Positions 34,501 through 63,642 of a stretch of DNA of 64,000 nucleotides are shown one piece after another; within the stretch, counting starts at the first letter, position 1, and each line of letters starts with the position of its first letter. The stretch spans positions 29,450,001 through 29,514,000 of the forward strand of contig CM126220.1 of assembly GCA_052327205.1 (NCBI GenBank), read 5' to 3'. Below the pieces are notes generated by a model. The model saw only the letters and a program-made list of their open reading frames with translations. It did no database searches and had not been told where the DNA came from. A program made the position numbers and the translations under genes. The DNA is from Somniosus microcephalus. Lineage: Eukaryota.

Positions 34501-34559
34501 TTGCAAATGTGTGTTCCCATGAATTGATGAATAATTCACAATGTTTCACTCTATTCCAG

Positions 34560-36223
34560 ATTCCACCGAACTGCCTAAACGACTCAGTCTCGATAGCTCC
34601 TCGTCGCTGGAATCTCTCTCCTCCTCTCAGTCTGTTTCCAATCCGACGGGACAGCTAAATCCACCATTTTCTCCCACTTACGGAGATTCAATGGCTTCAG
34701 ATGCCATCTCTGTGTACAGCCTCAGTTCCATCGCCTCCTCCATGAGCTTTGCTTCCAAGACAGACATCACTGGTGAAGGAATGCTCCAAAGGGGGCGACA
34801 GGACTACGAGAGGCCAAAGAACATTTACCCGCACAAGGCCGCCATGTTGCGAAGTAGATCTTCTCCACAGACAAGCAACACAAGCAGAGACGACGAAGAG
34901 TACGATGGATTCTCCATTATTAGCAGTGAGCCATTAAGTGTCTACTCTGACACCCTCAGGGTGTCTGCCTCACCAGACAAAGAGAGGACTACAGAACCAG
35001 TAGAACACAGCCATAACCTTGGAGACAAGCACACCTTCAAAGGTAATGCCAGTGCTTCCAGTTCTCCAGCTAAAATAACCCTCATTCCAAGTCCAAACTC
35101 GCCGTTTCAGAAGGTGGAATCCAGAAATAAACTTCCGAGTTCGGACACCGGAGAATCCGATCAGTCCAGTACGGAGACAGATAGCACGGTTAAATCACAA
35201 GAGGAGAAAGTGACCAAACTCAATCCTCAGGAGCTGGCACAGAAGATTTTGGAGGAGACTCAAAGCCACTTGCTTGCTGTTGAACGACTGTATCAAAGTA
35301 GTGGACCAGTTAGCAAAACAGGTTCTGCTGATGTTGATCATGGCATAACAGGGCATCATGGCTCTTCAGTTTTTAAATCTTCAGATACAAGTGCATTCAG
35401 TAGACCATTGAATGGCACTGGGCAGAAAAAGCAGTCTTCGCCAATAACCACAAAACCAAAGCCTCCAACACGAAGCTCATCACTTCAGAAGGTGAACTCA
35501 GGAAACAACACGCCTACTAGTGATATTACTGAGGTAGGTCAATCAGCGGGAGACTGCTATTCTAAAGGGGGCGATAGTAGACAAACCACAGCACCATCTT
35601 CACCCGTTGCGGATTTACGTCAATCTCCTGGCTCCTCAACTGATCAATCGCCAATCAAGATCAAATATCCCAGCTCCCCTTACAGTGCTCACATTTCCCG
35701 GTCTCCAAGCTCAGGCCACCAGTCTCCAGCTGGGAGTAACCCTTCTCCTGCCCTCTCCTACTCATCGGCAGGCTCGGCGCGCTCGAGCCCAGCTGACATC
35801 CCGGACCTGAGCAGATTGAAAATGACGGCCATTGACGAGAAAGTCAAGGCCGTCCACAATCTCAAAACTTTTTGGACGAGTGCTACGCAGCCTTCGTCCA
35901 GGCCTGTGCGGGCTCTGCGATCTAACCCTGCACTGGTGGCTTCCAAAGCTGATGCTCTAAGTTATTTGAATCTTTCACCAGCAAGGCGCAGCAAGAAGGA
36001 AGGAAAGGAGGATAAATTTGAGCTTAAGGAATTTTCCAAGCTTCCACACACAGACAAGAAAACCCAGAACGGACGTGGCGGTTGCCAGGAGACCAGTAAG
36101 CCATCAGAAACAACGCAGCCACCAAGTAGCATTCAAAGAGAGGCGCGTCCATTGAGATTCCCATCTGGGAATGGCTATAAATTCCTGTCTCCTAGAAAAT
36201 TCTTTCCCACCTCAAAGTGCTGA
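34560..36223 (+). CDS. TTC28: TTC28 terminal coding exon, Ser/Pro-rich low-complexity C-terminus
   Basis: ccag|AT acceptor; long open frame DSTELPKRLSLDSSSSLESL...GNGYKFLSPRKFFPTSKC-stop, as in TTC28. Confidence 0.95.
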
Positions 36224-37517
36224 AACGACCCAACCAGTCAGGCGCCAGATTTTTTTCATTGCCACATGACCTTGTGGAACTAGCATGTACAAGCCAATTG
36301 TGTCGGACATGCACCATTTGTAAACTGAACTCGTGTGTTGCGTGAACAGTACTAAAAAATTTTATACTGTTAAAGGAAAAAAAAAAGCAAAAAAAACTAC
36401 TGTGTAAAAAAATGTCATATTTTTATTGAATCAAAAAATGGCATTTTGCCTCATTTCTTAGTCATTTAATGGTTGATAACAGTTTATAAACGTCAAAAAT
36501 CACATTGGAATGTCAATCCGCAGTCAGTAGTATTTGTTGGAAAAACAAAATAAACTAGGCTTGTCAGTTTTAGGTTGCACCCAATTTTTATTGAAAGTGA
36601 CCTTTTTTAAAATTAGCGCCGTGTTTGCCAGTTTTTTGGTGCATTTCAGAGGTGCTGATGTTCTTTGTGCTGTCAACTTGCAGCAAGAAGGGTGAACAAG
36701 TGTAATTCCCATTCAGATCCCAGAGCTTCCTCCGAAGGTTTCTAAACACAATCACCAATCACTCTGTGGCTCAGCCAGAGGAGGCACAGGTCAGACTATA
36801 TAAAACAAAATTGGAATAGGTGAAACCCAAATAGGGGAACGTCTCACCGTGCACTTCAGATTACTACTTGTAAAAATTCCTCCACCTATTGGTTATAATA
36901 GCATTCCACTAGCCTCTGCTCTGCCTCTCGACTTTCAACTATTCCTGAATAATTCCATCCACTCCTGCAGATTTCTGTATGCTCAATATCGGGCATTGCA
37001 CAGGCCGCCTTTAACGCACTTCATTGGCTTGGGAGAGGGGTCCTTGTGGTTGTTTTGTTGTCCCAAGTGAATTGATGAGACGTCGGCTACACGAGTATGA
37101 CTGTCAATTGAGACTGGGATTCAAAGCTGTTGGTCAGGAAGGAGTCCAGTGCCCTGGAGGTGGAACTCCTGATCCAGAACTGGGCTGAGATATGAACGAG
37201 GGTCACGAGCCATCCAATTTTGGACCAAATAGTCCATTTTTAAAACCAGAAATACACTTTTATATCTTATGATGTGAAGGCATTAGTGATGAAGGTTTTA
37301 AGTGAATTATTATTAGCAACAAAACAAACCTCGGAATTCCACCCATGGTCCCATTCCCTGCCCTGGCCGACTGCACTCTCTGTCCTTCCACCTGTTTTGG
37401 ACTTGACGTAAAATGGCAAATTTACAACTGTGGTTCTGTAACTCCAGGTTGTCTCAGTAGATAACTACTTGACTGCTTGGAGAAATTGCTGTCAGATTGA
37501 TGGGAAATTTAGCAAAT

Positions 37518-37521
<4 letters not shown>

Positions 37522-37570
<49 letters not shown>
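37522..37570. repeat. (TG)n(AG)n microsatellite
   Basis: About 20 perfect TG units followed by AG units. Confidence 0.97.
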
Positions 37571-37571
<1 letters not shown>

Positions 37572-38094
37572 TTACATTTATCCATATCAGGGAGGGAAGA
37601 AAGGGCAGGGCTACCTAAAACTTTCAAGCCTAAAAATATTAAGAGTGTCTGTTAAATATACGTGTTAATGGTTGTTACATGAAATTCAAGGGAAAGAATA
37701 AGTCATAATATGATTTCTAAAGTAAGCAACAACAACAAAAGAGTGATGGGTGTAGCAGCCAGTGAGTTACTGCTGTGGTAGTTTTCCATGCTGTGGCAGT
37801 TAGTACTGTTTCATTGTGTGTTCAATAATATCATCAGAGCGCAGATGAATCTTGTGTACTGTACACCAGGGGGCAGCATTGCAGTATCTTTGTCAGCTTG
37901 TCCCATCACTCCAGTACCAATCCACTATCACCTGGTGCTTCTCCTGATAAGGATTTAACATCGACTGTGAGATCGATTACTGCAGGTTGTTCCGGTGGCT
38001 TGCAATGTTAATGATATTTTCTCTTTTTTTTCCTCTCGCTTTGATTTTTGTAAAATTTCCATGAGAGACACTCCTCATTTATATTCTATGAAAG

Positions 38095-38785
38095 TTTTAT
38101 ATGCACAACCTCAGTGAACATCCTCAGTGTCCTTTTGACCCTGAGCTGAGTTTCAACCGCCATACTGTATCACTAAGACTGCAACGTTCCACCTCCACAA
38201 TATTGCTTGGCTCTGCCCCAACCGCACGCCCACCACCTCTGAAACTCGCATCCGTGTCTCCAGACTCAATTTCTCCAAAATTCTCATCCGCCTCCTGAGC
38301 TTCACTCTAAACAAACTCAAACTCATCTAAGATTCTGGCACCTATACCCTCTTCCGTACTAAATCCCAGTCACCTATTGCCACCCCACCCCCATCCTTGG
38401 TGACATTCACTGGCTTCTCAACTCCCAATTGCAAAATCCGTGTCTACAAATCCGATAGTGCGTCCCCCCCCCCCCCCAAGCCCTCGGGCACCACACACAC
38501 ATTGCTGTTCTAACAGTGTGCCCTTCCTTCCTCTCCTCCTCCATTGGTGGTCGGAGCTTGAAGCCATTATGCCCTTCACTCTTATTAAACCATTCTGCTT
38601 TGCTGCATCTCTCTCCACCTTTAGAAGACTCCTGAAAATCTACCTCTTTGACCAGGTTATCTCCCTAACTCTGATCCCCAACTCCTCCCTGGTGTCCATT
38701 TTTCTCCCCCCGCCCCCACCTTTTCTGAAGTGCCTTGGGACGTTTCATTACGTTAAAGGCGCGATCTTAAACGTGAATTGTTTCT
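38095..38785 (+). mobile_element. Degraded L2 LINE 3' portion
   Basis: ttgaccctgagctgag, cattcactggcttc, aagactcctgaaaatctacctctttgacca and L2-type tail. Confidence 0.65.
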
Positions 38786-40441
38786 GTTACCTGGATTTTT
38801 AAATGATGAGAATTAACCATAACGGACAGGATTCCTGGTGCAGTTATAGAAGTGTTTTTATATTATTGTATTATATTGCATTGTTGGCACTTCCCAGTAT
38901 TAATCAGCCGAGCTCCCTTTTTCAGCAGCAGCGGAAGCCACTTGTTCATGGGCTTCCAGATCTGCTGTTGAAACTACCTCTTCTGTGGATCCAATTGGTT
39001 TGCAGGAGACCAGCAGTAGGAAGATCATTTGGGCATTACTGTCCCAGGGCCCGGACTGCACTGAACCAGAATGGAAAAGCATCTTTTGTCTTTTCTGTTT
39101 GAAGATCATAAACAGTACGAGAGGGTTGTACTGTATATGGAATCCCACCTCCTGTTTCCCCCTGTCCCTCCACCCATTCATACCAGCACTTCATGTTGTG
39201 CAAATCCCCCAGTTTCTAAGTGCAAGTGCTTTTCCCAGGCTAATTGCTCGGGTACAACACATTGTGTGGACAGAAAACCAATTCTCAGTGTCAGCATGGT
39301 AACTGTCTATTAATCGGGTTTACAGTGTAGAAGCAAAAACTAGAGCAAACATATTAACATTTCAAAACACGCCACACATGAGAAATAGATAATTTTGTCG
39401 GCTGCCTTTAAGTTGCAATGCAGGTTTTCACTTTTGAGTTGGAAGGATGACTGTTGGAAATCGCTGGGGTACCGCACCTTGTTCAGCTCCCATCACCTGC
39501 CCTGAAAATGTTGCTACATTTACCCACTTGATATGCACCCTACTTATTTTCTCAATATGCCGCCTTGCCTCGGAGTGAGAAGATTATGTGTTCAAGGCCA
39601 CTCCGGGACTTAAGCACATACGTTTGGCTCTGAGGGATTGCTGGAGATGCCATCTAAACCGAACCCCTGTCTTGTTCAGGTGGATGTATAAGAGCCTAGG
39701 CAAATCGCCCTGGGGTTCTGACCAACATTTAACCCTCGCTTGTTTGTGGGACCTTGCTGTGCATAAAGTGGCTGCCTCATTTACCTACATAACGACAGTG
39801 ACTTCAAAAGTAATTCATCAGCTGTGTTGGCTGATGCTGTTCCCATCCTTAATCACTTCTCCTTTTGCTTTTTTGTGCGTGTTTAAATAAATAGAGACCT
39901 GTATTTAAACAGAACACAGCATGACTAAGTGTTTTAGTGCAGGCATGAATTGCTTGATGTTTACTCTGTTTTTGTCAGCCCTTTCCCTTTCTCCCTTGTC
40001 TTCAGGGGGCTTTGGCCTGCAAACTCCATGTTCAGCTGGAATGCCTTGACCATGAACACGACTGCCTCTGTGAGTCATGTTTCTGGGATGAATATTCTTG
40101 TTTGTTTCAGACTAGGAGCTTCTATGTACATCCTACATTGCAGAGTATCGGGTGGAGGCTGCGCTGTGCTTTACAATCCGTGGACAGCTGATCAAGTACT
40201 TGGATCGATTGATGCAAGAATTGTCGCTTTTCCAATTCATGGCCTGAACTCATAATCCAATTACATTTATGGAGCCTGGCACAGCAGTCAGAGCTGGCGC
40301 CCCGCATATATTTGGGTAGCCCAAGCCTCCAGCCAGACCCAGAGCCCCTGTACTCGGACAGCTCGGAACTGTAGTGAAATCCAGAGCCCAATGCACTCGG
40401 GGAACCTGTCACTACAGTCAGATGTGTGCACTCCATACACT

Positions 40442-40552
40442 TGCAGTCCGACCTGGAGCACGTGTACTCGGCCCTGCAGTCCGACCTGGAGCACGTGTAC
40501 TCGGCCCTGCAGTCCGACCTGGAGCACGTGTATTCGGCCCTGCAGTCCGACC
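40442..40552. repeat. 33-bp minisatellite (3 copies plus a partial), with degenerate units on either side
   Basis: Unit tgcagtccgacctggagcacgtgtactcggccc; one C>T in copy 3. Confidence 0.95.
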
Positions 40553-43500
40553 CGGACCCCCCAAATGCTGGGGATGCCTGGCACTCCAGTTGGATCAGAA
40601 CTCTCTGCACTCGGGGCTGCAGTGAAATCATAATCTCAATACACGTGTTATGGACAGGGCGTTTGACTCACTGCTGAAGTGTAATACTGTATCTCATGGT
40701 TTAATCCAAGGTTCTGTTACCCTGTTTAAAGTATTCTGCTGTGACCTTCGCATGAAGTTTTTAGTAATATGAGAAGTGGAGTGGTGTATTTACGTCTTCT
40801 GAACTTTGAGTCCCGTCTGATAGACTGTGATGATCTTTTCCAGGCCTTGTACGTTCCTATGTAATCCATTCACCATCACATTCCCTTATTTAAGTGTATG
40901 GATGAACCAATCCTAAATTTCAGTGTTCAGCACGATTCCTGTACCTTAAAGCCAATCTCTAAGAAAGCATTTTTATGGGACGTTCACTCACTGAACACAT
41001 TAAAAAGCTTAAAATCAATATATATTAAACCCAAATTGTAGGTATATTGGGCTAGAAATTCATTATAGCTCAGGAATGGGTGGTGTCAGTAGAAAAGTTG
41101 GAGAATTAGCACCAGATGCTAATGTTTTTAGACTGCTCGCAAAATTCGTGCCCACTGCTCCTGCCAATAACTGTTGGCGGGGTGGGAGGGGGGGATTTGG
41201 CGTGCGGTGCTGGATTCGCCTCGCCCCAGCGATAATGCTCTAGCGTCCTGTTACTGAATTCTTCCCCCATATTCTTCCACGTGCGTAAAAAATATTTTTG
41301 CTTAACTGGCGTTATTAAACCAATGACAGTCTAGTAAAACAATTTCTTTAACTTATAGGGAAAATGTAGCCCTATATAATCTGATGTAAAATGCAGAGAA
41401 TAGACAGCTCTCAGTCCCAGCACCTTCGTGAAGTACAATGACTTCCACAAATAACAGATTGGGTTAATGCAGAGGAGGTTAAAGTTGGATTCATCCTGGT
41501 GATTGTTCTCTTCCTGTCAATGTTTTTGGTTCTGCTCCAGAACATCAGGGGCAGGTTTTTTGAAACCTCCCTTGTATACTGTGTTAGGGGGGTGGTGATG
41601 CATGATTCCTGCCCACTGAGCGATTCCTGCCCTGAGCTTATTTTGAAAGCAGTTCATCCTTTTCATCTCTTGATGAGAGATCATTTTTCTGTTGTAATTC
41701 TGTGCTTGAATCACTGATATTATAGAGTTATGATGGTGATTGAAGGCAGCATTGTTCAGTGCTTTTTTTGCGCTCTGATTTTTTTTTAAAGAGAGTTGCT
41801 GTGAGCGGAGACTATAATAGGACTACATGTGCTGTGCACGGAATGAAACGTTCCCTCATGCCTAGTCTAAACCTGCTGTTGCACTTTACAATTGGCGAGC
41901 ATACCAATCATTATAAACATTTCTATTGGGGTTTATAGGTTGAGTTCATTGCACCCCATGGCACTCTCTCTATGCAACCTGGAAGCATGTGTGCTCAGGA
42001 GGGCCAGTACTTAATAAGAGATGTACTGTCACATTGCCCAGCATTTGTCATGATTGGATAAAATTGCCACTCAAACAATGACAGTATTCCCAGAAATATG
42101 TACTTAAACTGATCTCGTAAAGATGTTTTGGAATTTGAGTAATTAAAGACCAGATAAAAATGCAATCACAAATATATTAGTGACTGTTCCTCTCAAATCT
42201 TTTTCACACCCCCCCCCCCCCCAAAATCTTAGTGTGCATTTAAACTTGCTTTCTGTACAAAAGCAGTTTCAGGTGTGCATCAACACAAAAGCTGACAGAA
42301 TAAATCTGGAACTAGACTCCAATCTGGCACTCGGCCACACTAAAGCTGGAGGTCATCTCATACTGGTTTGAGTTTGTAACAGCTGCAGTCTACCTCCAAT
42401 CCAACTACATTACTTTTTTTTTAATTTTGTACACAAACTTTGTAATGTAGGAACGAAGTGGATGCTCCCACCAATCCTTCTAGCTGTAAAAAATCAATTG
42501 CCCGGGGAGTGGAGCGGTACAATAAAACATTTACATTGTATCAGTCAGACTGAGGCCAGTCTGCAGCATAACTCCAACGATTGGTCTCAAATCAGTAACT
42601 GCAGTGTAATCGCAGCCTTGCTCATTCAGACATCAATTGGTTGAGTTTTCCAGGGTCCAGGAAATTCTGTGTGTTTGGTGTGCGTGGGGGCGGAGGGAGT
42701 GAGTGAGCAAAAGAGAGATGAGTGAAATAAGAGGAAAATACAACTAACAATTAATAAGTGTTTTGAAATGTGATGCAGAATGAAATCTACCAAACAATCA
42801 GTCCAATTCGTGGTGTTTTGAAGCCTGTTCTCTACACATTAAAAGTCAGAGATCATGCCATGCATCATTAGTGAGCAAATCCATGATCTTATTGAGTAGC
42901 GGAGCAGGCTCGAAGGGCCGTCTGGCTTGCTAATGTTTCTGATGTTCTTAAATGTTGATACATATATAGCATTTGTACTATTAATTACAGTAACAACTTA
43001 TCTGCAATTAGCAGCGAACTCGTTGTTTACATTCCCAATGAAAGGCACTGAATAGAATTGGTGATTTTCACACTCTGGGGAGGGGGAGATCCAAGCTTTA
43101 GTCATGTCCCCTCCTGTTGGCTGGAAACAGAACCTAATTCACTGCTGGAAGTTGCACGCTCACCATCTTATTGGGAATGCCCCACAGCCAACCCCTGACC
43201 CTGTCAGCAACACAAACCTGCAGCAACGGTAACTTGTTCATGAGGCAAATGGTTTTTTTCCAGATCCAGTTTATTAACCAGGATTTCTTGTGCCAGTCCA
43301 ATGATAATTCGCCAAAAAATAACCGTTTCTCACATTTGGCAGAAACCCCCCCCCCCTGTAAATACTAGCAACTGAAATAAAAAGCAAGATGCTGGAAACA
43401 CACAGCAAGTTCATCAGCATCTCGGAGAGAAAAGATCAGTTAATGTTTGAGGTGTAGACCTTTAGTCAGAATGTTCACACAGTGGGCCCAGGGTTGCAGA

Positions 43501-46599: not shown

Positions 46600-47098
46600 T
46601 TGGAGAAATACTCCTTGGAAAGTAAGAATTTAAATGGGGTAGAGGTGCAAGGGGTACAGATACGGGTTAACAAAGCCATAAAGAGTACAAAGCAAGCTGA
46701 AGGAATAGAATTGTAAAGCAGTGAAGTTATGTTTAACTTGTACAGAAGCTTGGTTAGACCACGCTTGAAGTACTGTGCTCAGTTCTGCACTGTATATTGC
46801 AAAAATGATACCGAAGCGTTGGAGAAAGTGCAAAAATGATGTACAAGGGTGAACCAGAACCGATAGGGTGCAACAATCAGGAAAGACTGAACAGGCTGAG
46901 GCTCTTTTCTCTAGAAAAAAGATTGAGAGGTGACCTGATAGAGATCTTTAAAATTCTGATGGTTGGCGATAGGGTAGATGTAGAGATGATGTTTCCACTG
47001 GTGGGGGGGGAGTTCAAAACTAGGAGTCACCAATATAAGATAGTCACCAATAAATCCAATGTGGAATTCAGGAGAAACTTCTTTACTCAGAGAGCGGT
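46600..47098 (+). mobile_element. CR1 LINE fragment, 3'-truncated against the putative PITPNB exon 1
   Basis: ERLNRLRLFSLEKRLRGDLIEIFKI...TRSHQYKI...FRRNFFTQR peptide; the CR1 tail is absent. Confidence 0.85.
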
Positions 47099-47099
47099 G

Positions 47100-48200
47100 A
47101 GCTGGAGTGGGGATGGGAAGAAGTGGTTTGCTCCGGATCGGGTCCTGGGGCTGGAGATGTCACCACACTGCATGCGGGTCTTGTGTGTATGTTTGGTGAC
47201 AGCAGTTGGAGTTTTTGCTACAGTGGTGCTCACCAAGGAATAGTAAGTGGAGGCTGAAACAGCGGAGATGTGCACCGCCCCCCTAAACTCGCGCTGTTCT
47301 TACCCCCGTCTGGCGAAGGGGCGGCGCAGTGGCCGCGGTATCGGCGAGTGAGAGAGGGACACTTTCAGCCCTGGTTCTGAGAGCCGGTGGCTGGGGGGTG
47401 AATCCTCCCTGCACCGGGGAAGCCCGTGTTCTGCCGGATTAAAGGGGATTTGATATCCAGAACCCTACTGCTATTCCCAGCCCTGAACTAAAACACAAAC
47501 CAGCAGCTCCAGCAAAGTGGCTGTTTGCACATGTCAGTCGATGTCAGTGATGTGACATTTCTGTGCATTATCATTTAGAACTTGATCCTGGAAACTGGTG
47601 GTAATTCGAGTTTAATTTCCTCCCTGTGCTGACACTGTACTTGGCTGTGTCTCGGGACTGGTGTCGGCCCCTGCAGAGCCCGAATGCAGAAGTGGAGCAT
47701 CTCGAATGTCCTCTGCTACCAGAGCCACGCAGACCTAAAGATCTGAGGGACTTCCACACTCCAGCCAGAGCCTGCGTGGAACAGTGGCGAGGGAAGGTGC
47801 AGCAACAGGACACGAGGAAGACTGTGTGAAGTTGAAACTCTTGGCCCCCCCTTCTCCAGTTATGTCGATGTTTTTTGGGGTGTGAACTATTGAAATGTAG
47901 GTCGCTCACGGTGCTTATGTTGGAGTCACTCAGTCCTGACACCCGGCGCTGTTGTTGGGTGTCGCCCTCTTTCGATTGTGGAGCTGCTTGTAAAATAATC
48001 GCCTTCATTATAATGTCGCCCCTGCATTTACAAAGTAACAAATAACCCGCATGTGTTGTTATTGATTGGTTTCTGCTTATCTGCCTGTCGGAAGTGGCTG
48101 TGCCGTGCCTCCTATCCCACTAATCCCAGTGCTGTGGACCGTCTCCATCGCTGCCTGGACGGGAGGATCCCAGTGCAAGTTTAGCGGCTGCTTTTTGTGT
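47100..48200. promoter_or_regulatory. GC/CpG-enriched region around the putative PITPNB exon 1
   Basis: Visibly higher CpG density (e.g. 47260-47440) against an AT-rich background, with no recognisable repeat. Confidence 0.45.
47157..47242 (+). CDS. PITPNB: Probable first coding exon of a class I phosphatidylinositol transfer protein (PITPNB by synteny) with an N-terminal extension
   Basis: GTG GTG CTC ACC AAG GAA TA|gtaagt matches the PITPNA/B exon-1 pattern M-V-L-x-K-E-(Y/F) with a phase-2 donor. It lies downstream of TTC28 in the same orientation beside CpG-rich DNA. In-frame ATGs at 47157 and 47172. Exon 2 was not found in the window. Confidence 0.6.
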
Positions 48201-54443: not shown

Positions 54444-57400
54444 TCACCCCTTCTTTAGATTTAGTCCATCGGGGTGATGTTTCTTAAAGTTGGTATAAGT
54501 GAGTCTGTCAGGAGGTTTTGCGGTTCTCAGTGATCGGCGCAAAGCCGGTTGGGGTGCCTCTAGGGGAGTGGATTCTGGTTCCTCCGCTGTCCGGGCCTCC
54601 GCAGTGTCTTCCAGGTTATCTGCAGTGTCCTCCAGGTTAAAGTTGGGTATTGATACCTCTGGGCGTCCTGTCGCTTTTTGGTGTAGGCCTTCCTCGGGTA
54701 GTCTCTCATCGTTCTCTCCGCTCCCCGAGGGAGCGAGGTCTTTTATGGAAACAGTGTCCTCTCGCCCGTCAGAGTATTCGATATAGGCGTACTGAGGGTT
54801 TGCATGGAGGAGCTGTACCTTTTCCACAAGGGGATCCATTTTATGGCCTCTCACGTGCTTCCGCAATAGTACTGTCCCCGGAGACGTCAGCCACGCGGGT
54901 AGAGATATGCCCGAGGTGGATTTCCGGGGGAAAATGAACATCTTTTCGTGAGGGGTAGCGTTAGTGGCTGTACATAACAGAGACCTTATGGAGTGGAGCA
55001 CGTCTGGGAGGACTTCCTGCCAGCGGGAGGTCGGAAGGCCTTTTGACTTTAAGGCTAACGTGACAGCCTTCCAAACAGTAGCATTCTCCCTTTCCACTTG
55101 CCCATTACCCCGGGGGTTGTAGCTAGTGGTTCTGCTAGTGGCTATCCCCTTCGAGAGCAAGAACTGTCGCAGTTCGTCACTCATGAATGACGTCCCCCTA
55201 TTGCTGTGTATGTAGTTCGGCATGCCAAACATGCAGAATAGATTACAGAGACACTTGATGACCGTGGCACTGGTCATGTCTGGGCAGGGAATGGCGAAGG
55301 GGAAGCGGGAATATTCACCGATGATATTGAGGAAGTATACGTTACGGTCGGCAGAGGGAAGGGGTCCCTTGAAGTCCAGACTTAGGCGCTCGAATGGCCG
55401 TGTGGCTTTGATAAGGTGTGCACGGTCAGGCCTGTAGAAACGAGGCTTGCATTCCGCACAGATGCGGCAGGCTCTGGTCATTGCCCTGACCTCCTCGATG
55501 GAGTGGGGCAGATTGCGGGACTTTATAAAATGGTATAGTCGGGTGACCCCTGGGTGACAGAGGTCGTTGTGGAGACCCTGTAATTTGTCCGTATGAATGC
55601 TGGCACACATTCCCCGCGATAGGGCGTCTGGGGGTTCATTAAGGGCTCCCGGCCTGTACATAATATCATAGTCGAACGTGGATAGTTCGATCCTCCACCT
55701 GAGTATTTTGTCATTCTTGATTTTCCCCCTTTGTTATTAAACATGAAAGCCACTGACCGCTGGTCGGTGAGCAGGGTGAAACGTTTGCCGGCTAGGTAGT
55801 GTCTCCAGTGCCGCACTGCCTCCACTATAGCCTGTGCCTCCTTCTCGACAGAAGAGTGCCTGATTTCAGGTCCCTGAAGGGTTCGGGAGAAGAAGGCCAC
55901 AGGTCTCCCAGCCTGATTGAGGGTCGCAGCTAAGGCAAAGTCTGACGCATCGCTTTCGACTTGAAAGGGAATGCTTTCGTCCACTGCACACAGTGCAGCC
56001 CTTTCAATGTCCTGTTTGATACTGGTGAAAGCCTCCCGAGCTTCAGCTGATAGTGGGAAGGACGTCGATTTAATGAGGGGTCGGGCCTTATCAGAGTAAT
56101 TGGGCACCCATTGGGCATAATACGAAAAAAATCCCAGGCACCTTTTTAAAGCTTTGGGATTGTGTGGCAGGGGCAGTTCCTTTAGGGGGCGTAATTGGTC
56201 AGGGTCCGGTCCAATTACCCCATCTTCCACCACACAGCCGAGGATACAGAGACGGGTTGTGTTGAAGACACATTTGTCTTCGTTGTAGGTTAGATTCAGC
56301 TTTAGGGCAGTTTTTAAAAATCTCGCAAGATTTAGATCGTGGTCTTGCTGGTTGTGCCCGCAGATAGTGACATTGTCCAGATAGGGGTAGGTAGCTTGTA
56401 GTTTATTCTCGTCAACCATGCGGTCCATCTCACGTTGGAAGACCGAGACCCCATTTGTTACCCCGAAGGGCACTCTGAGAAAATGGTAGAGGCGCCCGTT
56501 CGCCTCGAAGGCGGTGTATGGGCAGTCCTCCGTTCTAATGGGGAGCTGGTGATATGCGGATTTGAGGTCGATAGCCGAGAAGACTCGGTATTGCGCAATC
56601 TGGTTGACCATTTCTGATATGCGGGGTAAAGGGTAGGCGTCCAGCTGGGTATAAATATTAACAGTCTGGCTGTAGTCAATTACCATCCGTTTATTTTCGC
56701 TATTTTTAACTATGACTACTTGGGCACACCACGGACTGGTACTGCATTCAATAATGCCTTCCCGCAGGAGTCTGTCCACTTCCGCCTTGATAAAGTGTCT
56801 GTCTTCCAGACTGTACCGTCTACTTTTGGTCGCTGTGGGCCTACAGTTCGGAGCGAGATTAGCGAATAAAGAGGGCGGGCTGATTTTTAAGGTTGATAGG
56901 CCACAGACTGTGAGTGGCGGCTGGGACCCGCCATATGCTAGCGTGACACTTTCGTGGTGGCACTGGAAGTCCAGGCCCAAGATTACATTAACACAGAGTT
57001 CTGGCATCACAAGGAGTTTAAAATCCTTGTAGTCCGTGCCTTTTACAGTCAGTGTTACCACACAGTAGCCCAAAATGTCCGAAGTGTGGGGCTTAGCAGC
57101 CATAGCAATTCTGCTCCGTGTAGGGGTTACCGTTAATGAGTGCTGCCGTACCAGGCTAGGGTGGATAAAACTCTCGGTACTCCCACAGTCAATTAAACAT
57201 TTCGTTAAATTCCCGTTTACCTGTATGTCCATCATGGATTTTGTCAACGGGTGTGGCCTGGATTGATCCACCGTGATCGAAGCCACTGTTGGGCCCTGGG
57301 CGGCCGTTGAGTTGGGAAAAGATGGCGGATCCCAAGATGGCGGCCCGCACGGCACGCACGAGGCGGTGACGGAGTTGGAAATCGGATTCCCCCTGCAGAC

Positions 57401-58189
57401 TTTGCTAAAATGCCCCTTTTTCTTACATTTGAAGCATGTAGTGTCCTTCGCTGGGCATCGTTGTCTGGGGTGCTTGGCCTGGCTGCAGAAGTAGCATTTC
57501 GGGCCTCGAGACATTGCCGCTGTAGTAGGACTCCTGGGTGAACTTCTGTGTGGGGACTCCGGCGGTGTAGTGCTGGTCTGAGACCTGGATGGGGAAGATG
57601 GCTGATTCCACGATGGCGGCCCGCTCGGCGCGCATGAGGCGGTGAGGGCCGCATGGCCGGAAGAATAAGAGTCAGAGTTTTTCTGGGCCACGTCCAGCGA
57701 TCGCGCAGTGGCCACTGCCTTTTTTAAGTCCAGGACCTCCTTCTCCAGCAGTCTCTGCCGGATATAATTCGATTTGAGGCCCATGGTGAAGGAATCGCGG
57801 ACCAATTCGTCAGAGTACACGTTGGCCGTCACGGCCTTGCAGTTACAGTCCCGGACCAAGTCCTTTAGGCCCTGTAAGAAATCGTCCATTGATTCCTCAG
57901 GTCGCTGCCTGCGTGTAGCCAGCAGATGTCTGGCGTACACTTCGTTTACCGGCCTCTGGTATTGGGCCTTCAGGATAGTGATGGCCTCCGTGTAAGAGGT
58001 GGCGTCCCGGATGAACGAATAAATCTGATGACTAACGCGAGTAGTCAGTAGACTCAGTTTATCTACCTCGCTAGCGGATGAGGCCCTCGTGAAGAGTTCG
58101 AAGCATTTGAGCCAGTGTCCAAATTGATTTGATGCTTCAGCAGAATGTGGATCCAAGTCCAGACGCTCTGGTTTTAGGAGTCGATCCAT
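54444..58189 (-). pseudogene. Gypsy gag-pol polyprotein, broken by one frameshift near 55730
   Basis: Two CCHC knuckles, protease LIDCGS, RT DLKSAYHQ / PFG / YLDN, RNase H ESDAS, integrase HHCC followed by degenerate D,D,E. Confidence 0.92.
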
Positions 58190-58214
58190 CCTAGTATTCT
58201 TTAGTGATTAAAAT

Positions 58215-58743: not shown

Positions 58744-61700
58744 TTAGTCCTTGTAGACCTTCAGTTGAGTCCAGTGTTTCCACCGCCCCATCCCCTTTAT
58801 ATCTATATACATGCGCACGTATCCCCACTAATAAGGACTTGATGTGGTCCTGACCATTTTGGGGCAAAGCCTGTTTTTTCTGGTAAAATTTTAACCATTA
58901 CCTTAGTTCCCGCTGGAGGGATATGTGGAAGTGCAGTCAATTCCAAATCTTTATCTCTTTCCTCCTGTCTATCCCTAGTTTGCTGTCTCATTTCCTTTAA
59001 CTGGTTACTTAGTTCCAAGACGTACCTACGGACTCTATCTCTCAGAGGGCCTATATCCTCTCCTCCTGTTATTATTCCATGGGGGAGTTGCATCGCTCTC
59101 CCCGTCGTTAATTCGTAAGGGGACAAACCCGTCGTTCGGTTTGGGCTCGCCCTTAACTTCATTAACACGGTTGGTAATACATTTACCCATTGCTGTTGCT
59201 TTTCCCCTAACGCCTTGGCTAAGGCTGTTTTCAAAGTCCGGTTCATTCGTTCCACCATTCCCGAGCTCTGGGGATGGTAGGGAATATGGAATTTTTGCTT
59301 TATTCCCATCCATTCGCATATCTTTTTCATTACTATCCCTGTAAAATGTGTCCCCTAATCTGAATCGATTTGGATTGGTACTCCCCATCGGGGAATTATT
59401 TCTTCTGCCATTATTCTTGCCACTGTGGTGGCTGTGCAGTCCCTAGTAGGGAAGGCCTCGACCCATCGAGTAAACTGGTCTATAATTACCAAGCAATATC
59501 TCTTCCCCCTGGAACTTGGTAATGGTCCAGTGAAATCTATTTGTATCTTTTCCCAAGGGCCTCTAGGTCTCGGCTGGTGGGCCATTCGTATTTTTACTGG
59601 CCGTCCTGGGTTATGCTGGGCGCATGTCGGACACTTTTGACAATACTTTGCTACATCCCTTCCTACACCTGGCCACCACCATTCTTGTCCTACCAGATGG
59701 GTCATCGCCCCTCTGCCCGCATGATCTATGCCATGGTGTAACTCCAAGAGTGTTTGTCGAATACAAGCGGGGGCTATTACCTTCCCGTTCTTTCACCAAA
59801 CCCCCTGATCATCTGCTCTACCTCCTACCCAATACCATTCCTGCCTTTCTCCCGGCGCGGTATCCTGGTGCAACCTTCCGATGTCTATCTGGTCTACCTG
59901 TGTACTTGCTACCGGTAGTTCCTGTTCTAATGCCTGCTGCGCTGCCAAATCCGCGGCCCGATTACCCTCTTGTTGGCGGGTTTCTACCTTCTGATGGGCT
60001 TTAATTTTTACTACTGCTGCCTGCTTTGGTGCTTTTGCAGCTTTCAAGAGGGCCCCTATTCACTGTTGATGTCTGATAAGATCTCCTCCTGCAGTGACCA
60101 ATCCCCTTCTTCCCCAAGCTATCATATAATCGTGCACCACTCCAAACGCATATCTACTATCTGTGTAAATATTTACTGTTTTTCCTTCTGCCAGGGTCAG
60201 GGCCCCAGTGAGTGCTACTAATTCTGCCACTTGGGCTGATAATGCCCCGTCCAATCTGCCGGACAATACTGTTTCTAATTTTTCATTTACGACTGCCCAC
60301 CCAGTTCGGGGAGACCCGTCAACATATTTTCTGGAGCCGTCCACGTACAGGGTAAGCTGTGGGTCTTCCAGAGGATCTTCCTCCAAAGGGTCTCCGTCTA
60401 TTTCCTCACCTACTTCTGCACATACGTGGGGTTCCCCTGATCCCAGGATCCCTTCCGCGGGATTCTCCCCCGTATCCCTAACAATTACCACTGATTCGTC
60501 CTTAGGTATTAGGACCATCTCCCAACGTGCCCTTCGCATGTTAGATACTGACCGTAGCTTATTATTATTTAACATTTCTACTATCGTGTGTCTGGTATGG
60601 AGGATAATGTCCCCGGTCATTACTGTGGGCTCGCTAACCTTTACCGCCCACGCTGCGCAATCCAGTGCTGCTACACATCGTGATAATCCAGCGGCTACGG
60701 ATGACTGTTTAGTGGAGTAATATGCTACCGGCCGTCGCCTGTCCCCATGTTGTTGGGTTATCACGGCGGCGTAGAACCCCCCTTCGTTTTCACAATGAAT
60801 GTGGAATGGTTTCCTCATGTCGGGTAGACCGAGGCCAGGGGCCACTATCAGCGCTTGTTTTAAACTCCCATATGCCTGCTCCTGTTCTGGTCCCCACTCT
60901 ACCGGGGTATTACCGGGACTCCCCCCTTTCACCAATTTCTGGATGGGTTCTGCTATAGCTGCAAAGTTCGCTATAAAATTCCTACTATAATTAAAGAGAC
61001 CTAAAACCTTCCTGACTCCTCGTACTGAGACCGGTCGGGGCATCTCTTGTATGGCCTTCCGTCGGTCACCTGGCATGGCTCTGGTCCCCTGTGACAATTG
61101 TTGTCCCAGGTAAATAACTGTGCTCTGCCCGATTTGAGCTTTCTTAGGGTTTATCTTGAACCCTCCTATTTCCAGGGCTTGTAGGACTTCAGTTAACGCA
61201 GCTGCATGTCCATGCTCATCTTCCGAGGCGATTAACAGGTCATCCACGTATTGCAATACAGTGCTGCGGTACGGGTTGAGGTTCACTGTTTCTAACAGTG
61301 AACTCATTACCCGGTGGAATACCGCCGGGCTGTTATGGAACCCCTGAGGTAGCCTAGTCCATGTATGCTGTCTTTCCCCGACCGTAAAGGCAAACTTATT
61401 CTGGGATTCCTGGTCTAAAGGTAAAGACCAGAATCCATTAGCTATGTCCAAAACTGTAAAAATCTTGTGCTCCGAGTTCAAGGCATTTAAGATTGTGGAT
61501 GGGCTGGCCACTATTGGGTGCAATTTGGGCGTTACCTTGTTTAATTCCGTATAATCAATAGTCAGTCAGAATGATTTATCCGGTTTGGTGACTGGCCATA
61601 CGGGCGAGTTGGTCGTGCTTTCGGTAATCCTAATTATGCCCCTTTCTTCCAGATCACGCACTATTTCTTGTACCGCTTCCCGGGCTTTTGGTTTAATAGG

Positions 61701-62266
61701 GTATTGCTTATGGGGCTTGTGTTCCGGACCTGGAACCGTGATTGGCTCCATTTTTACCTGTCCGGTGTCCTGTTTTGTCTTAGCCCAAATCCCTTTCATA
61801 ATTTTGCATATGGTCCCGTATGGTTTCCGTTCTAGTTCCCAATCCCTGCTCAAAGATGCTGCACTCCCTACCCTAGCCAAATTGGTGCATGGTTTATCTA
61901 TACTGACCTTGGACCCATCTCCTTTGGACCAAACAATTTTATTTTGCGCGGAGTCCACCAATGTGTTAAATTCTTTTAGCAAGTCTATTCCTAATATGGT
62001 ACCTTCGTTATTTGGACACACATAAAAGTGGGCGGGGAGGAGTTTTCCTGTTAACTCTAAAACTTGTACCTCACTTTTATAAGCCTTAATTTTTATACCC
62101 CCTAATCCTACTATATATATATATATTCCTTGGTTGTTGGAAGGGGCAAATCAGTCAAGGATACTGATGCTCCTGTGTCAACTAACATTTCACACGGTCG
62201 GCCCCCTAATAATGCTGCTACATAGACTCGGTTATCCGAGCCTCCTTTTACGGGGGCCGCCTCCCG
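58744..62266 (-). pseudogene. pol: ERV pro-pol (protease, RT, tether, RNase H, integrase), disabled
   Basis: LVDTGA, LDIANGFWS, RLPQGFHNSP, QYVDD, LYVDGS, HHCC, IDFT/IDQF..DSD..E, terminal WKHWTQLK. Four premature stops (61566, 60060, 59793, 59355) and frameshifts near 62112 (TA expansion), 59770 and 58805. Confidence 0.93.
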
Positions 62267-63574
62267 TCATTGACTCTTCCCTTTCGACTTGAGGTACTCA
62301 AGAAAGTCCCTTCTATCCTCCGGACTGAGATAAGCGCCCTGTGTCTGGTCCACGTTTCCTTTCTTCTGCCAACAGCTGTAACTCTGGTGTCCTGGCTTAC
62401 CGCAATAGTCACATCCCCCTTTCTTTCCACTCCTGCAATCCTTTGCCATATGTCCCATCTTCCCACAATTATAACAGTTCCCCTGAATTCTCTTGTTTGA
62501 TTGTGATGCCTCCCCTGCTGCTACCCTTTCCTGTTTAACTTTTACACCTCCCTTTTCGGTGTGTTCAGATTCCTTTGCGTCTATCTGACATGCCCATTGA
62601 ACTGCGAGACCATACGTAGGGGCGGCTACTACCCCCATTTTTAGGATGGCTTGGTGTGCCGATGAGAGTCCATCCTTAAACATCTGGATGAAGGGCTGGT
62701 CTGTTCGTTGTGGGTTTGCTTGCCCTGACGATTCGCAATAGGCGTCAAACAATCGTTCTCCATAATCACTACTAGATTCTCCCTTTCTTTGCTTTATTGA
62801 TTGGATTTTTCCCCAGTTTATAGTAGGGGCCCCAAGTGCCGTTTCTACTGCGATCTTAAAGGGCCCGTATGCTGCCCGCTGTGCCGCCAGTGCGGCACCC
62901 GCAGGTACTGCATCCGCCCACGCTCCGTCTTGCATGCCTGCAGCGGGGTTTACATTTCTCCATTTGTCGGCTGGGCATTTCGCCCTAACTAACTGGTGGA
63001 TGTCTCGAGGATGTAAATCATGGATTTCCCATATTTCCTCTAAATTCCTCCAGAACTCTGAGTTCTGACTACGGGGTTTAAGGGTTCCTAAATCTTTAAG
63101 AATGGCTTGTTTTTCAAGAGGGGAGAAAGCCCGATATCGACTTTGAGCTGGCGCTGGGTGTCGTATTACGGGTGCCATCGGCACTACTGGAATATCATTT
63201 TCGTCTCTAGGTGGAGCCGAGGCATACGGCGGGGGGTTTTCTTTATCCCGTTCGTCTCCTTTTCCCTTGCCTGTCAATTCCATCCTTTCTACTAAAGTTT
63301 CTAATTCTGCTATTCTTATTTCTTGTTCTTCCATCTTACTGGTTTGTGTCTTAACCCTTTTTGTTAACATTACTACCTGATGTATTAAAATTACTCCTGC
63401 TTTCTTAGTTTTCTTTTGTTTCTGCTTTTCCCACCACTCCCGCTGTGTTATTGGTTTTTCTAGTGGATCCCACCCATCTTTCTTCATTTTATCGATCAAA
63501 CCCTTTTGGTCGTCAGCATAGAGCCGACTCATCGATCCTGGCGGACCCCAGTCTGGGCCTCCGCCTTCCACCAT
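62267..63574 (-). CDS. gag: ERV gag, open 435-aa frame
   Basis: Basic matrix-like patch, PPPY late domain, MHR-like QRKGESSSDYGERL, two CCHC knuckles, ends CAA-TGA-CGG in frame with protease. Confidence 0.9.
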   Translation of the reverse strand: MVEGGGPDWGPPGSMSRLYADDQKGLIDKMKKDGWDPLEKPITQREWWEKQKQKKTKKAGVILIHQVVMLTKRVKTQTSKMEEQEIRIAELETLVERMELTGKGKGDERDKENPPPYASAPPRDENDIPVVPMAPVIRHPAPAQSRYRAFSPLEKQAILKDLGTLKPRSQNSEFWRNLEEIWEIHDLHPRDIHQLVRAKCPADKWRNVNPAAGMQDGAWADAVPAGAALAAQRAAYGPFKIAVETALGAPTINWGKIQSIKQRKGESSSDYGERLFDAYCESSGQANPQRTDQPFIQMFKDGLSSAHQAILKMGVVAAPTYGLAVQWACQIDAKESEHTEKGGVKVKQERVAAGEASQSNKRIQGNCYNCGKMGHMAKDCRSGKKGGCDYCGKPGHQSYSCWQKKGNVDQTQGAYLSPEDRRDFLEYLKSKGKSQ

Positions 63575-63642
63575 AATGTATTAATTTTTTTTTTCACTAG
63601 TTTACCACGTTCCGGTCCACCCTAGTAACTCGTTCTCAGAGG

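Follow-up and report, generated by a model that had tools for sequence, protein, structure and literature searches.

A first exon with GTG in place of ATG, very probably the relic of a dead PITPNB, at the TTC28-MN1 locus of the shark Somniosus microcephalus

The window, by which we mean the whole stretch of 64,000 nucleotides analysed, corresponds to C19:29,450,001-29,514,000 within the 6.4-Gb genome of Somniosus microcephalus; 450 kb beyond it were added, giving 514 kb in total without N, and "extended" coordinates are the C19 position minus 29,450,000. On the upstream side lies the last coding exon of a gene for a TPR plus CHAT protein, which we take to be TTC28, on the downstream side lies MN1, and the remnant of a phosphatidylinositol transfer protein (PITP) gene stands between them on the same strand in a gap-free interval (Table 1). 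Two fused gene models from other vertebrates cover this region: five exons of the window match a catfish model (TPR, CHAT, then PITP-beta), and a 1,251-codon frame (extended 282607-286359) together with an exon at 311656 match a hamster model (PITP-beta, then MN1). Because these models match both flanks in the same order, the gene order can be read as TTC28, remnant, MN1, in keeping with the first-pass annotation, made from the letters alone, which had noted that in other vertebrates PITPNB comes after TTC28. A second, diverged copy of the last MN1 exon lies about 154 kb downstream (C19:29915808-29915984, plus strand); it is 51% identical to the hamster model, the main copy 73%.

Table 1. Features of the TTC28-MN1 interval and of the related genes elsewhere in the genome (positions without a prefix are those of the window)
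Feature	Position	Strand	Remarks
TTC28, last coding exon, in open frame	34535..36220	+	TPR and CHAT protein match; RNA in X5
High-copy repeat fragment	46642..47101	+	Ends 56 nt upstream of the first ATG and lacks the family's continuation; start is a bin edge
Former 5' UTR (likely)	47157..47222	+	Hydrophobic frame of 22 codons, rich in Val and Cys, with ATGs at 47157 and 47172 in frame; T/G-rich; single copy
PITPNB exon 1 relic, coding part	47223..47242	+	20 nt, length and phase as in intact paralogues; start codon is GTG
Relic 5' splice site	47243..47248	+	Canonical donor hexamer; read through unspliced it gives an in-frame TAG, then TAA
GC/CpG-rich start of intron 1	47243..47450	+	GC 0.63, CpG o/e 0.78
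Remnant exon 5	C19:29560196-29560254 (extended 110196-110254)	+	59 nt vs 75; acceptor AG lost
Remnant exon 6	C19:29562644-29562725 (extended 112644-112725)	+	82 nt vs 84
Remnant exon 7	C19:29583268-29583346 (extended 133268-133346)	+	79 nt vs 78; three stops
Remnant exon 8	C19:29619419-29619532 (extended 169419-169532)	+	114 nt vs 111; two frameshifts and a stop; 4-nt gain
MN1	from ~C19:29732607	+	Match of the hamster fused model
PITP-alpha (PITPNA)	C22:47.54-47.62 Mb		Examined exons all open; ATG in GC-rich setting
Third class I PITP gene	C35:38.52-38.59 Mb		Exons 1-3 open, ATG, CpG island

The exon-1 stretch translates as (V)VLTKE plus two bases, and the PITP first-exon pattern with GTG for ATG, as originally noticed from the sequence, was confirmed along with its canonical donor and its strong Kozak context (A at -3, G at +4). 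An acceptor-like T-run and AG precede the TG of this codon, the AG being bases 47222-47223. Met occupies the GTG position in 102 of the 105 stored PITPs carrying the motif KE[FY]R, a Met start being expected four residues upstream of that motif. For comparison with the start of intron 1, the exon-1 regions of the paralogues have a GC content of 0.55-0.60 and a CpG o/e of 0.55-0.70 (over 1 kb), and the CpG-rich patch here is likely the remains of a CpG island.

Farther downstream, remnant exons were located by tblastn with paralogue exons and vertebrate PITPs and by a frameshift-aware codon scan with a profile built from eight proteins. The first-pass annotation had proposed a search for further PITP exons, and exons 5-8 were indeed found in gene order on the plus strand, with 37.7, 57.2, 58.5 and 71.3 bits in the scan against 19-24 bits for the best other or reverse-strand scores; every one of them bears stops and/or frameshifts, adding up to four stop substitutions and five frameshifts over about 113 codons. 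The five exon relics (1 and 5-8) extend over 122 kb and have flanks of splice type, which indicates that introns were kept at the ancestral locus. Exons 3, 4 and 9 gave only null-level scores on both strands of the 514 kb in the frameshift-aware scan, where the same exons of the intact C22 gene reached 183, 98 and 139 bits. Since copies of these C22 exons remained detectable in 94-100% of 150 trials each after simulated decay (13% or 22% plus indels), exons 3, 4 and 9 have most likely been deleted; for exons 2 and 10 the detection power in such simulations was only 3-46%. No intact PITP exon occurs in the 514 kb, which reach past MN1, and the TTC28-MN1 locus lacks the open frame of about 270 residues, with a single PITP domain, that a functional class I PITP has. 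We assume that class I PITP function needs the inositol- and phosphate-binding residues and a membrane-docking tryptophan pair, which the remnant does not provide, and the inositol-binding residues presumably fall in exons 3-4, the undetected ones. A homologue search with the exon-6 frame, which is weak evidence, returned no candidate.

For phylogenetic placement the remnant was read with X at each break. It falls inside the beta clade in a 27-row tree (100/98), as sister to Callorhinchus beta (91/82), and the sister link recurs with weaker support (83/78) in a 14-row tree without Penaeus and Medioppia, which are poorly filled or long-branched, and without some other rows; in that smaller tree a grouping of the remnant with elasmobranch alpha was rejected (p-AU 0.004). 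With the PITP-beta of Callorhinchus milii (XP_042193699.1, stored as P0215) the remnant shares the length and phase of exon 1, the boundaries of exons 5-8 and its tree position, and 72 of 112 mapped codons are identical, a count tied with penguin beta and including one misregistered 4-codon piece. The trees contain no confirmed pitpnbl protein, and therefore the decision between beta and beta-like rests on synteny. Like vertebrate PITPNB, the remnant stands between TTC28 and MN1; it differs from it in having no open frame, GTG for ATG and a first exon without any read in two RNA runs. With PITP-alpha it has the exon structure and the 20-nt first coding exon in common, whereas the alpha exons examined are open.

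Searches of the whole genome with PF02121, rodent beta (P0105) and chimaera beta (P0215), which score the best candidates only and do not list the PITPNB remnant exons themselves, found class I exons 4-9 on C22 only. No intact PITPNB appeared elsewhere among these best candidates, which comprised only PITP-alpha and, on C35, a class I gene of three exons that is likely pitpnbl. Exons 4-10 of the C35 gene were not found genome-wide; a gap of 500 N begins about 160 bases after its exon 3, and exons 1-2 are repeated in inverted orientation across the gap, which is probably an assembly artefact. A match to the NUPR1 family on C35 was considered as a clue to the identity of this gene, but at a distance of 3.6 Mb it does not settle the matter. 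As a separate observation on class IIB genes, identical PITPNC1-like exon translations occur at C7:164.57 Mb and C43:17.31-17.33 Mb, so that, with C11 and C21, there are three distinct PITPNC1-like genes and a likely false duplicate.

How far the decay has gone can be read from the conserved positions. The 11 beta orthologues compared have 65 invariant columns, and the remnant departs from 16 of them, including K194R and W203L (P0215 numbering), and 16 of 130 constrained bases are changed (JC 0.13, interval 0.08-0.22; two ambiguous codons of exon 7 left out of the count), against 2 of 121 in the living alpha paralogue on C22. By simple arithmetic, a decay of 12% per base gives any given codon a probability of about one third of one hit, and thus the change of ATG to GTG needs no special cause. 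Furthermore, the GTG and the "acceptor" AG share one G, and hence a single A-to-G transition accounts for both. A mutation rate of 7e-10 per generation has been given for the epaulette shark (in part of PMC10587355); at this rate 0.13 substitutions per site would correspond to about 2e8 generations, too many for a usable date, although the figure points to a very old loss.

The disabling changes of exons 5-6 are real and not errors of assembly. Contigs from the DNA runs X1 (possibly the source of the assembly) and X3 (another sample of the same study under another organism label, differing by well under 1%) each span 3.1 kb with exons 5-6 in one piece, and the 8 substitutions and 3 indels listed between these contigs and the assembly over the 3.1 kb all lie outside the two exons. 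At exon 1, no difference from the contigs falls inside the exon among the 40 of 91 differences listed. Two RNA runs, X4 and X5, carry the species label of X1 and come from an unknown tissue; 24% and 31% of them, respectively, were read. Depth was 0 at 47109-47575 in both, without any joint at the 47243 donor, and exons 5-6 drew 3 and 8 reads in the two runs, again without a splice joint. In X5 the last TTC28 exon was covered on one strand, with a depth of 1.2-3.5 in three bins and 0.2 in a fourth; X4 is no valid control because TTC28 was uncovered there as well. An unused donor, which the first-pass annotation had named as evidence against a working first exon, was therefore seen in two runs, one of them with a working control, although as RNA evidence this is thin. 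A search for RNA runs containing 46900-47600 listed none, which speaks neither way. X5 also shows stranded, low and patchy RNA cover over 36220-40570, about 4 kb past the TTC28 stop, which suggests that the 3' UTR is long but ends short of the PITPNB relic.

Upstream of the GTG, the two in-frame ATGs open a hydrophobic extension, as had been described at first sight, and its 10-residue Kyte-Doolittle mean (KD10) reaches 3.05. The contexts of the ATGs (G at -3 and T at +4 for 47157; T at -3 and C at +4 for 47172) are both weaker than that of the GTG, and read unspliced the two frames give 23-28 residues, ending at a TAG that overlaps the old donor. Among 40,000 random local sites a fraction of 1.25e-4 held an ATG-led open frame of at least 15 codons with a 10-residue mean of at least 3.05, and among 5,000 dinucleotide shuffles 0.18% did; the looser cut-off of 2.0 gave 0.5% and 5.2%, and 2.0 plus a basic residue gave 0.17% and 1.0%, respectively. 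The hydrophobic ATG-led extension is thus real and rarer than chance. Drift alone can account for it only as a coincidence that a large scan, drawn to special-looking features, brought to light. No Pfam match was obtained for this small frame, and there is no intact frame downstream, hence no translated cargo protein. The repeat fragment on its 5' side, which we take to be a CR1-type LINE from the likeness of its translation to CR1 ORF2 (no Pfam hit), has a summed contig depth of 276,460 over its bin and loose ends at 47101.

Given these observations, the stretch is very probably exon 1 of a broken PITPNB, a unitary pseudogene that likely makes no protein and whose GTG is likely a decayed ATG. 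Four readings had been left side by side by the first-pass annotation, and the decaying gene among them proved right, with four downstream exons disabled and exons 3, 4 and 9 undetectable. The other three, namely a secreted or membrane-anchored PITP, initiation at GUG, and a start codon split by the acceptor-like site, all fail because each needs a working gene downstream; moreover, the acceptor AG exists only by virtue of the G that replaced the A of ATG. A live PITP-beta, translated from GUG or from an A|TG codon completed by an unseen upstream exon, might find some encouragement in the strong context of the GTG, the intact donor and the T-run and AG ahead of the TG. It is nevertheless hardly credible, given an interval devoid of intact exons up to and beyond MN1, class I exons 4-9 confined to C22, exons 5-6 whose disabled state two read-based contig sets share, and a first exon without reads in the two RNA runs. 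Just as little weight can be granted to the thought that the exon-1 pattern matches here by chance and has nothing to do with the remnant exons. It is true that across the genome the 26-nt pattern has 12 matches and its reversed control also 12, which is the chance level, but the other 11 include three ATG first exons that belong to the two further class I PITP genes, one on C22 and two on C35; and the match discussed here is the sole one in the 314 kb counted from the window start, on the right strand, just after TTC28, upstream of exons 5-8 and followed by a CpG-rich intron start. The genome-wide rate puts the probability of a chance match within the 74 kb that separate TTC28 from remnant exon 5 at about 1e-4 (arithmetic).

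The rarity of the hydrophobic frame leaves a slender probability that it is not a coincidence, being either a signal or anchor peptide from before the death of the gene or a membrane micropeptide made in some tissue outside the two runs. In the former case the living shark PITP-beta would have used an upstream ATG, and the GTG would have coded for a valine inside the protein. The unusual hydrophobicity of the frame would fit this, and with decay at the rate observed a real leader of 23-28 codons would remain open in 11-16% of cases, so that its survival is possible. However, the chimaera orthologue starts with Met at the GTG position and has no leader, and among nine upstream extensions of stored PITPs the seven long enough to score reach a maximum of 1.54. 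In addition, both ATG contexts are the weaker ones, and the core is Val/Cys-rich, out of T/G-rich sequence, and not Leu-rich, while vertebrate signal peptides usually are. Class I PITPs are, moreover, described in passages of the review PMC8266687 as small soluble proteins of about 270 residues with a single PITP domain; a signal or anchor peptide, if true, would be a route undescribed for them in those passages. We regard such an ancient leader as very improbable, and still more so the reuse of the dead exon, in which an unspliced transcript would encode a micropeptide of 23-28 residues ending at the TAG over the old donor. In favor of the latter are a complete small ORF with a hydrophobic core, its single-copy state and the CpG-rich patch directly 3' of it, and against it speak zero RNA reads in the bin in both runs, the weak ATG contexts, the repeat fragment 56 nt upstream and the missing Pfam match.

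The preferred reading, that of a decayed PITPNB, suggests the following course of events. PITPNB may have become dispensable when another class I PITP covered the exchange of PI and PC, the covering gene being perhaps the intact PITP-alpha on C22, possibly joined by the class I gene of C35. Drift would then have brought about one A-to-G transition, turning ATG into GTG and creating the acceptor-like AG; the upstream ATGs and the hydrophobic frame may have arisen within the T/G-rich former 5' UTR; and the promoter side as well as whole exons were presumably removed by repeats and deletions.

With regard to the breadth of the loss, a profile search built from frog beta and the remnant pieces yielded 833 matches, of which the best 120 were listed. 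Chondrichthyan names appear on four of these 120, the chimaera beta scoring 139 bits and three alphas from sharks or rays 132-134 bits, and the cluster of the chimaera beta has three members, all chimaera. Alpha proteins are known from at least 14 elasmobranch species and beta from none among the matches listed; chimaera, coelacanth, sturgeon and tetrapods have an intact beta. In such a search a shark beta, if intact, would be expected to rank above shark alpha, and for this reason a loss across elasmobranchs is likely. On this footing, 120 of the 833 matches plus cluster representatives and one shark genome read, it seems reasonably probable that all sharks and rays lack PITP-beta, and a single early loss in their lineage, after the split from chimaeras, would be the equally favored course.

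The exon-1 feature in itself would be ordinary pseudogene decay, and its value lies in the gene loss. According to the parts of PMC8266687 consulted, PITP-beta was long held to be essential and is now reported to be dispensable in mice, where Pitpnb-null animals are fertile and appear normal; no double nulls could be obtained. A shark that is a natural PITP-beta null, as all sharks and rays likely are, would speak for long-term redundancy among class I PITPs. In zebrafish, PITP-beta is reported to be needed for cone outer segments (a passage of PMC7921602, citing Ile et al. 2010), and one may speculate about a tie between the loss of PITPNB and the reduced cone system of cartilaginous fishes. 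A parallel is offered by noggin1, which, as stated in part of PMC10869764, was lost in sharks, rays and skates; both genes are kept in other vertebrates and were lost while paralogues remained. Unlike noggin1, PITPNB encodes a housekeeping lipid carrier for which a paralogue can partly stand in, and it has left recognizable exon relics, and its loss is seen in one genome and inferred for elasmobranchs. In the literature searched, which did not extend to subscription journals and supplementary gene-loss tables, no report of PITPNB loss in sharks was found.

Other elements were encountered in the course of the analysis. Two adjacent LTR-type retroelements lie on the minus strand of the window, at 58806-63580 and 54447-58207, one with matches to a zinc knuckle, RT and two RNase H domains and with in-frame stops, the other with matches to protease, RT and RNase H. 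At L043:6805-9771 (minus strand) a gag/protease-like frame runs, past a single stop and without change of frame, into a 440-codon coiled-coil-like stretch that we take to resemble RAI14/UACA (no Pfam hit), possibly a host exon or a retrocopy inside a retroelement. Finally, C19 carries at about 29,859,000-29,885,000 some 26 kb of low-complexity TG/CA-rich satellite, whose minus strand has frames that run without a stop for as many as 2,400 codons.
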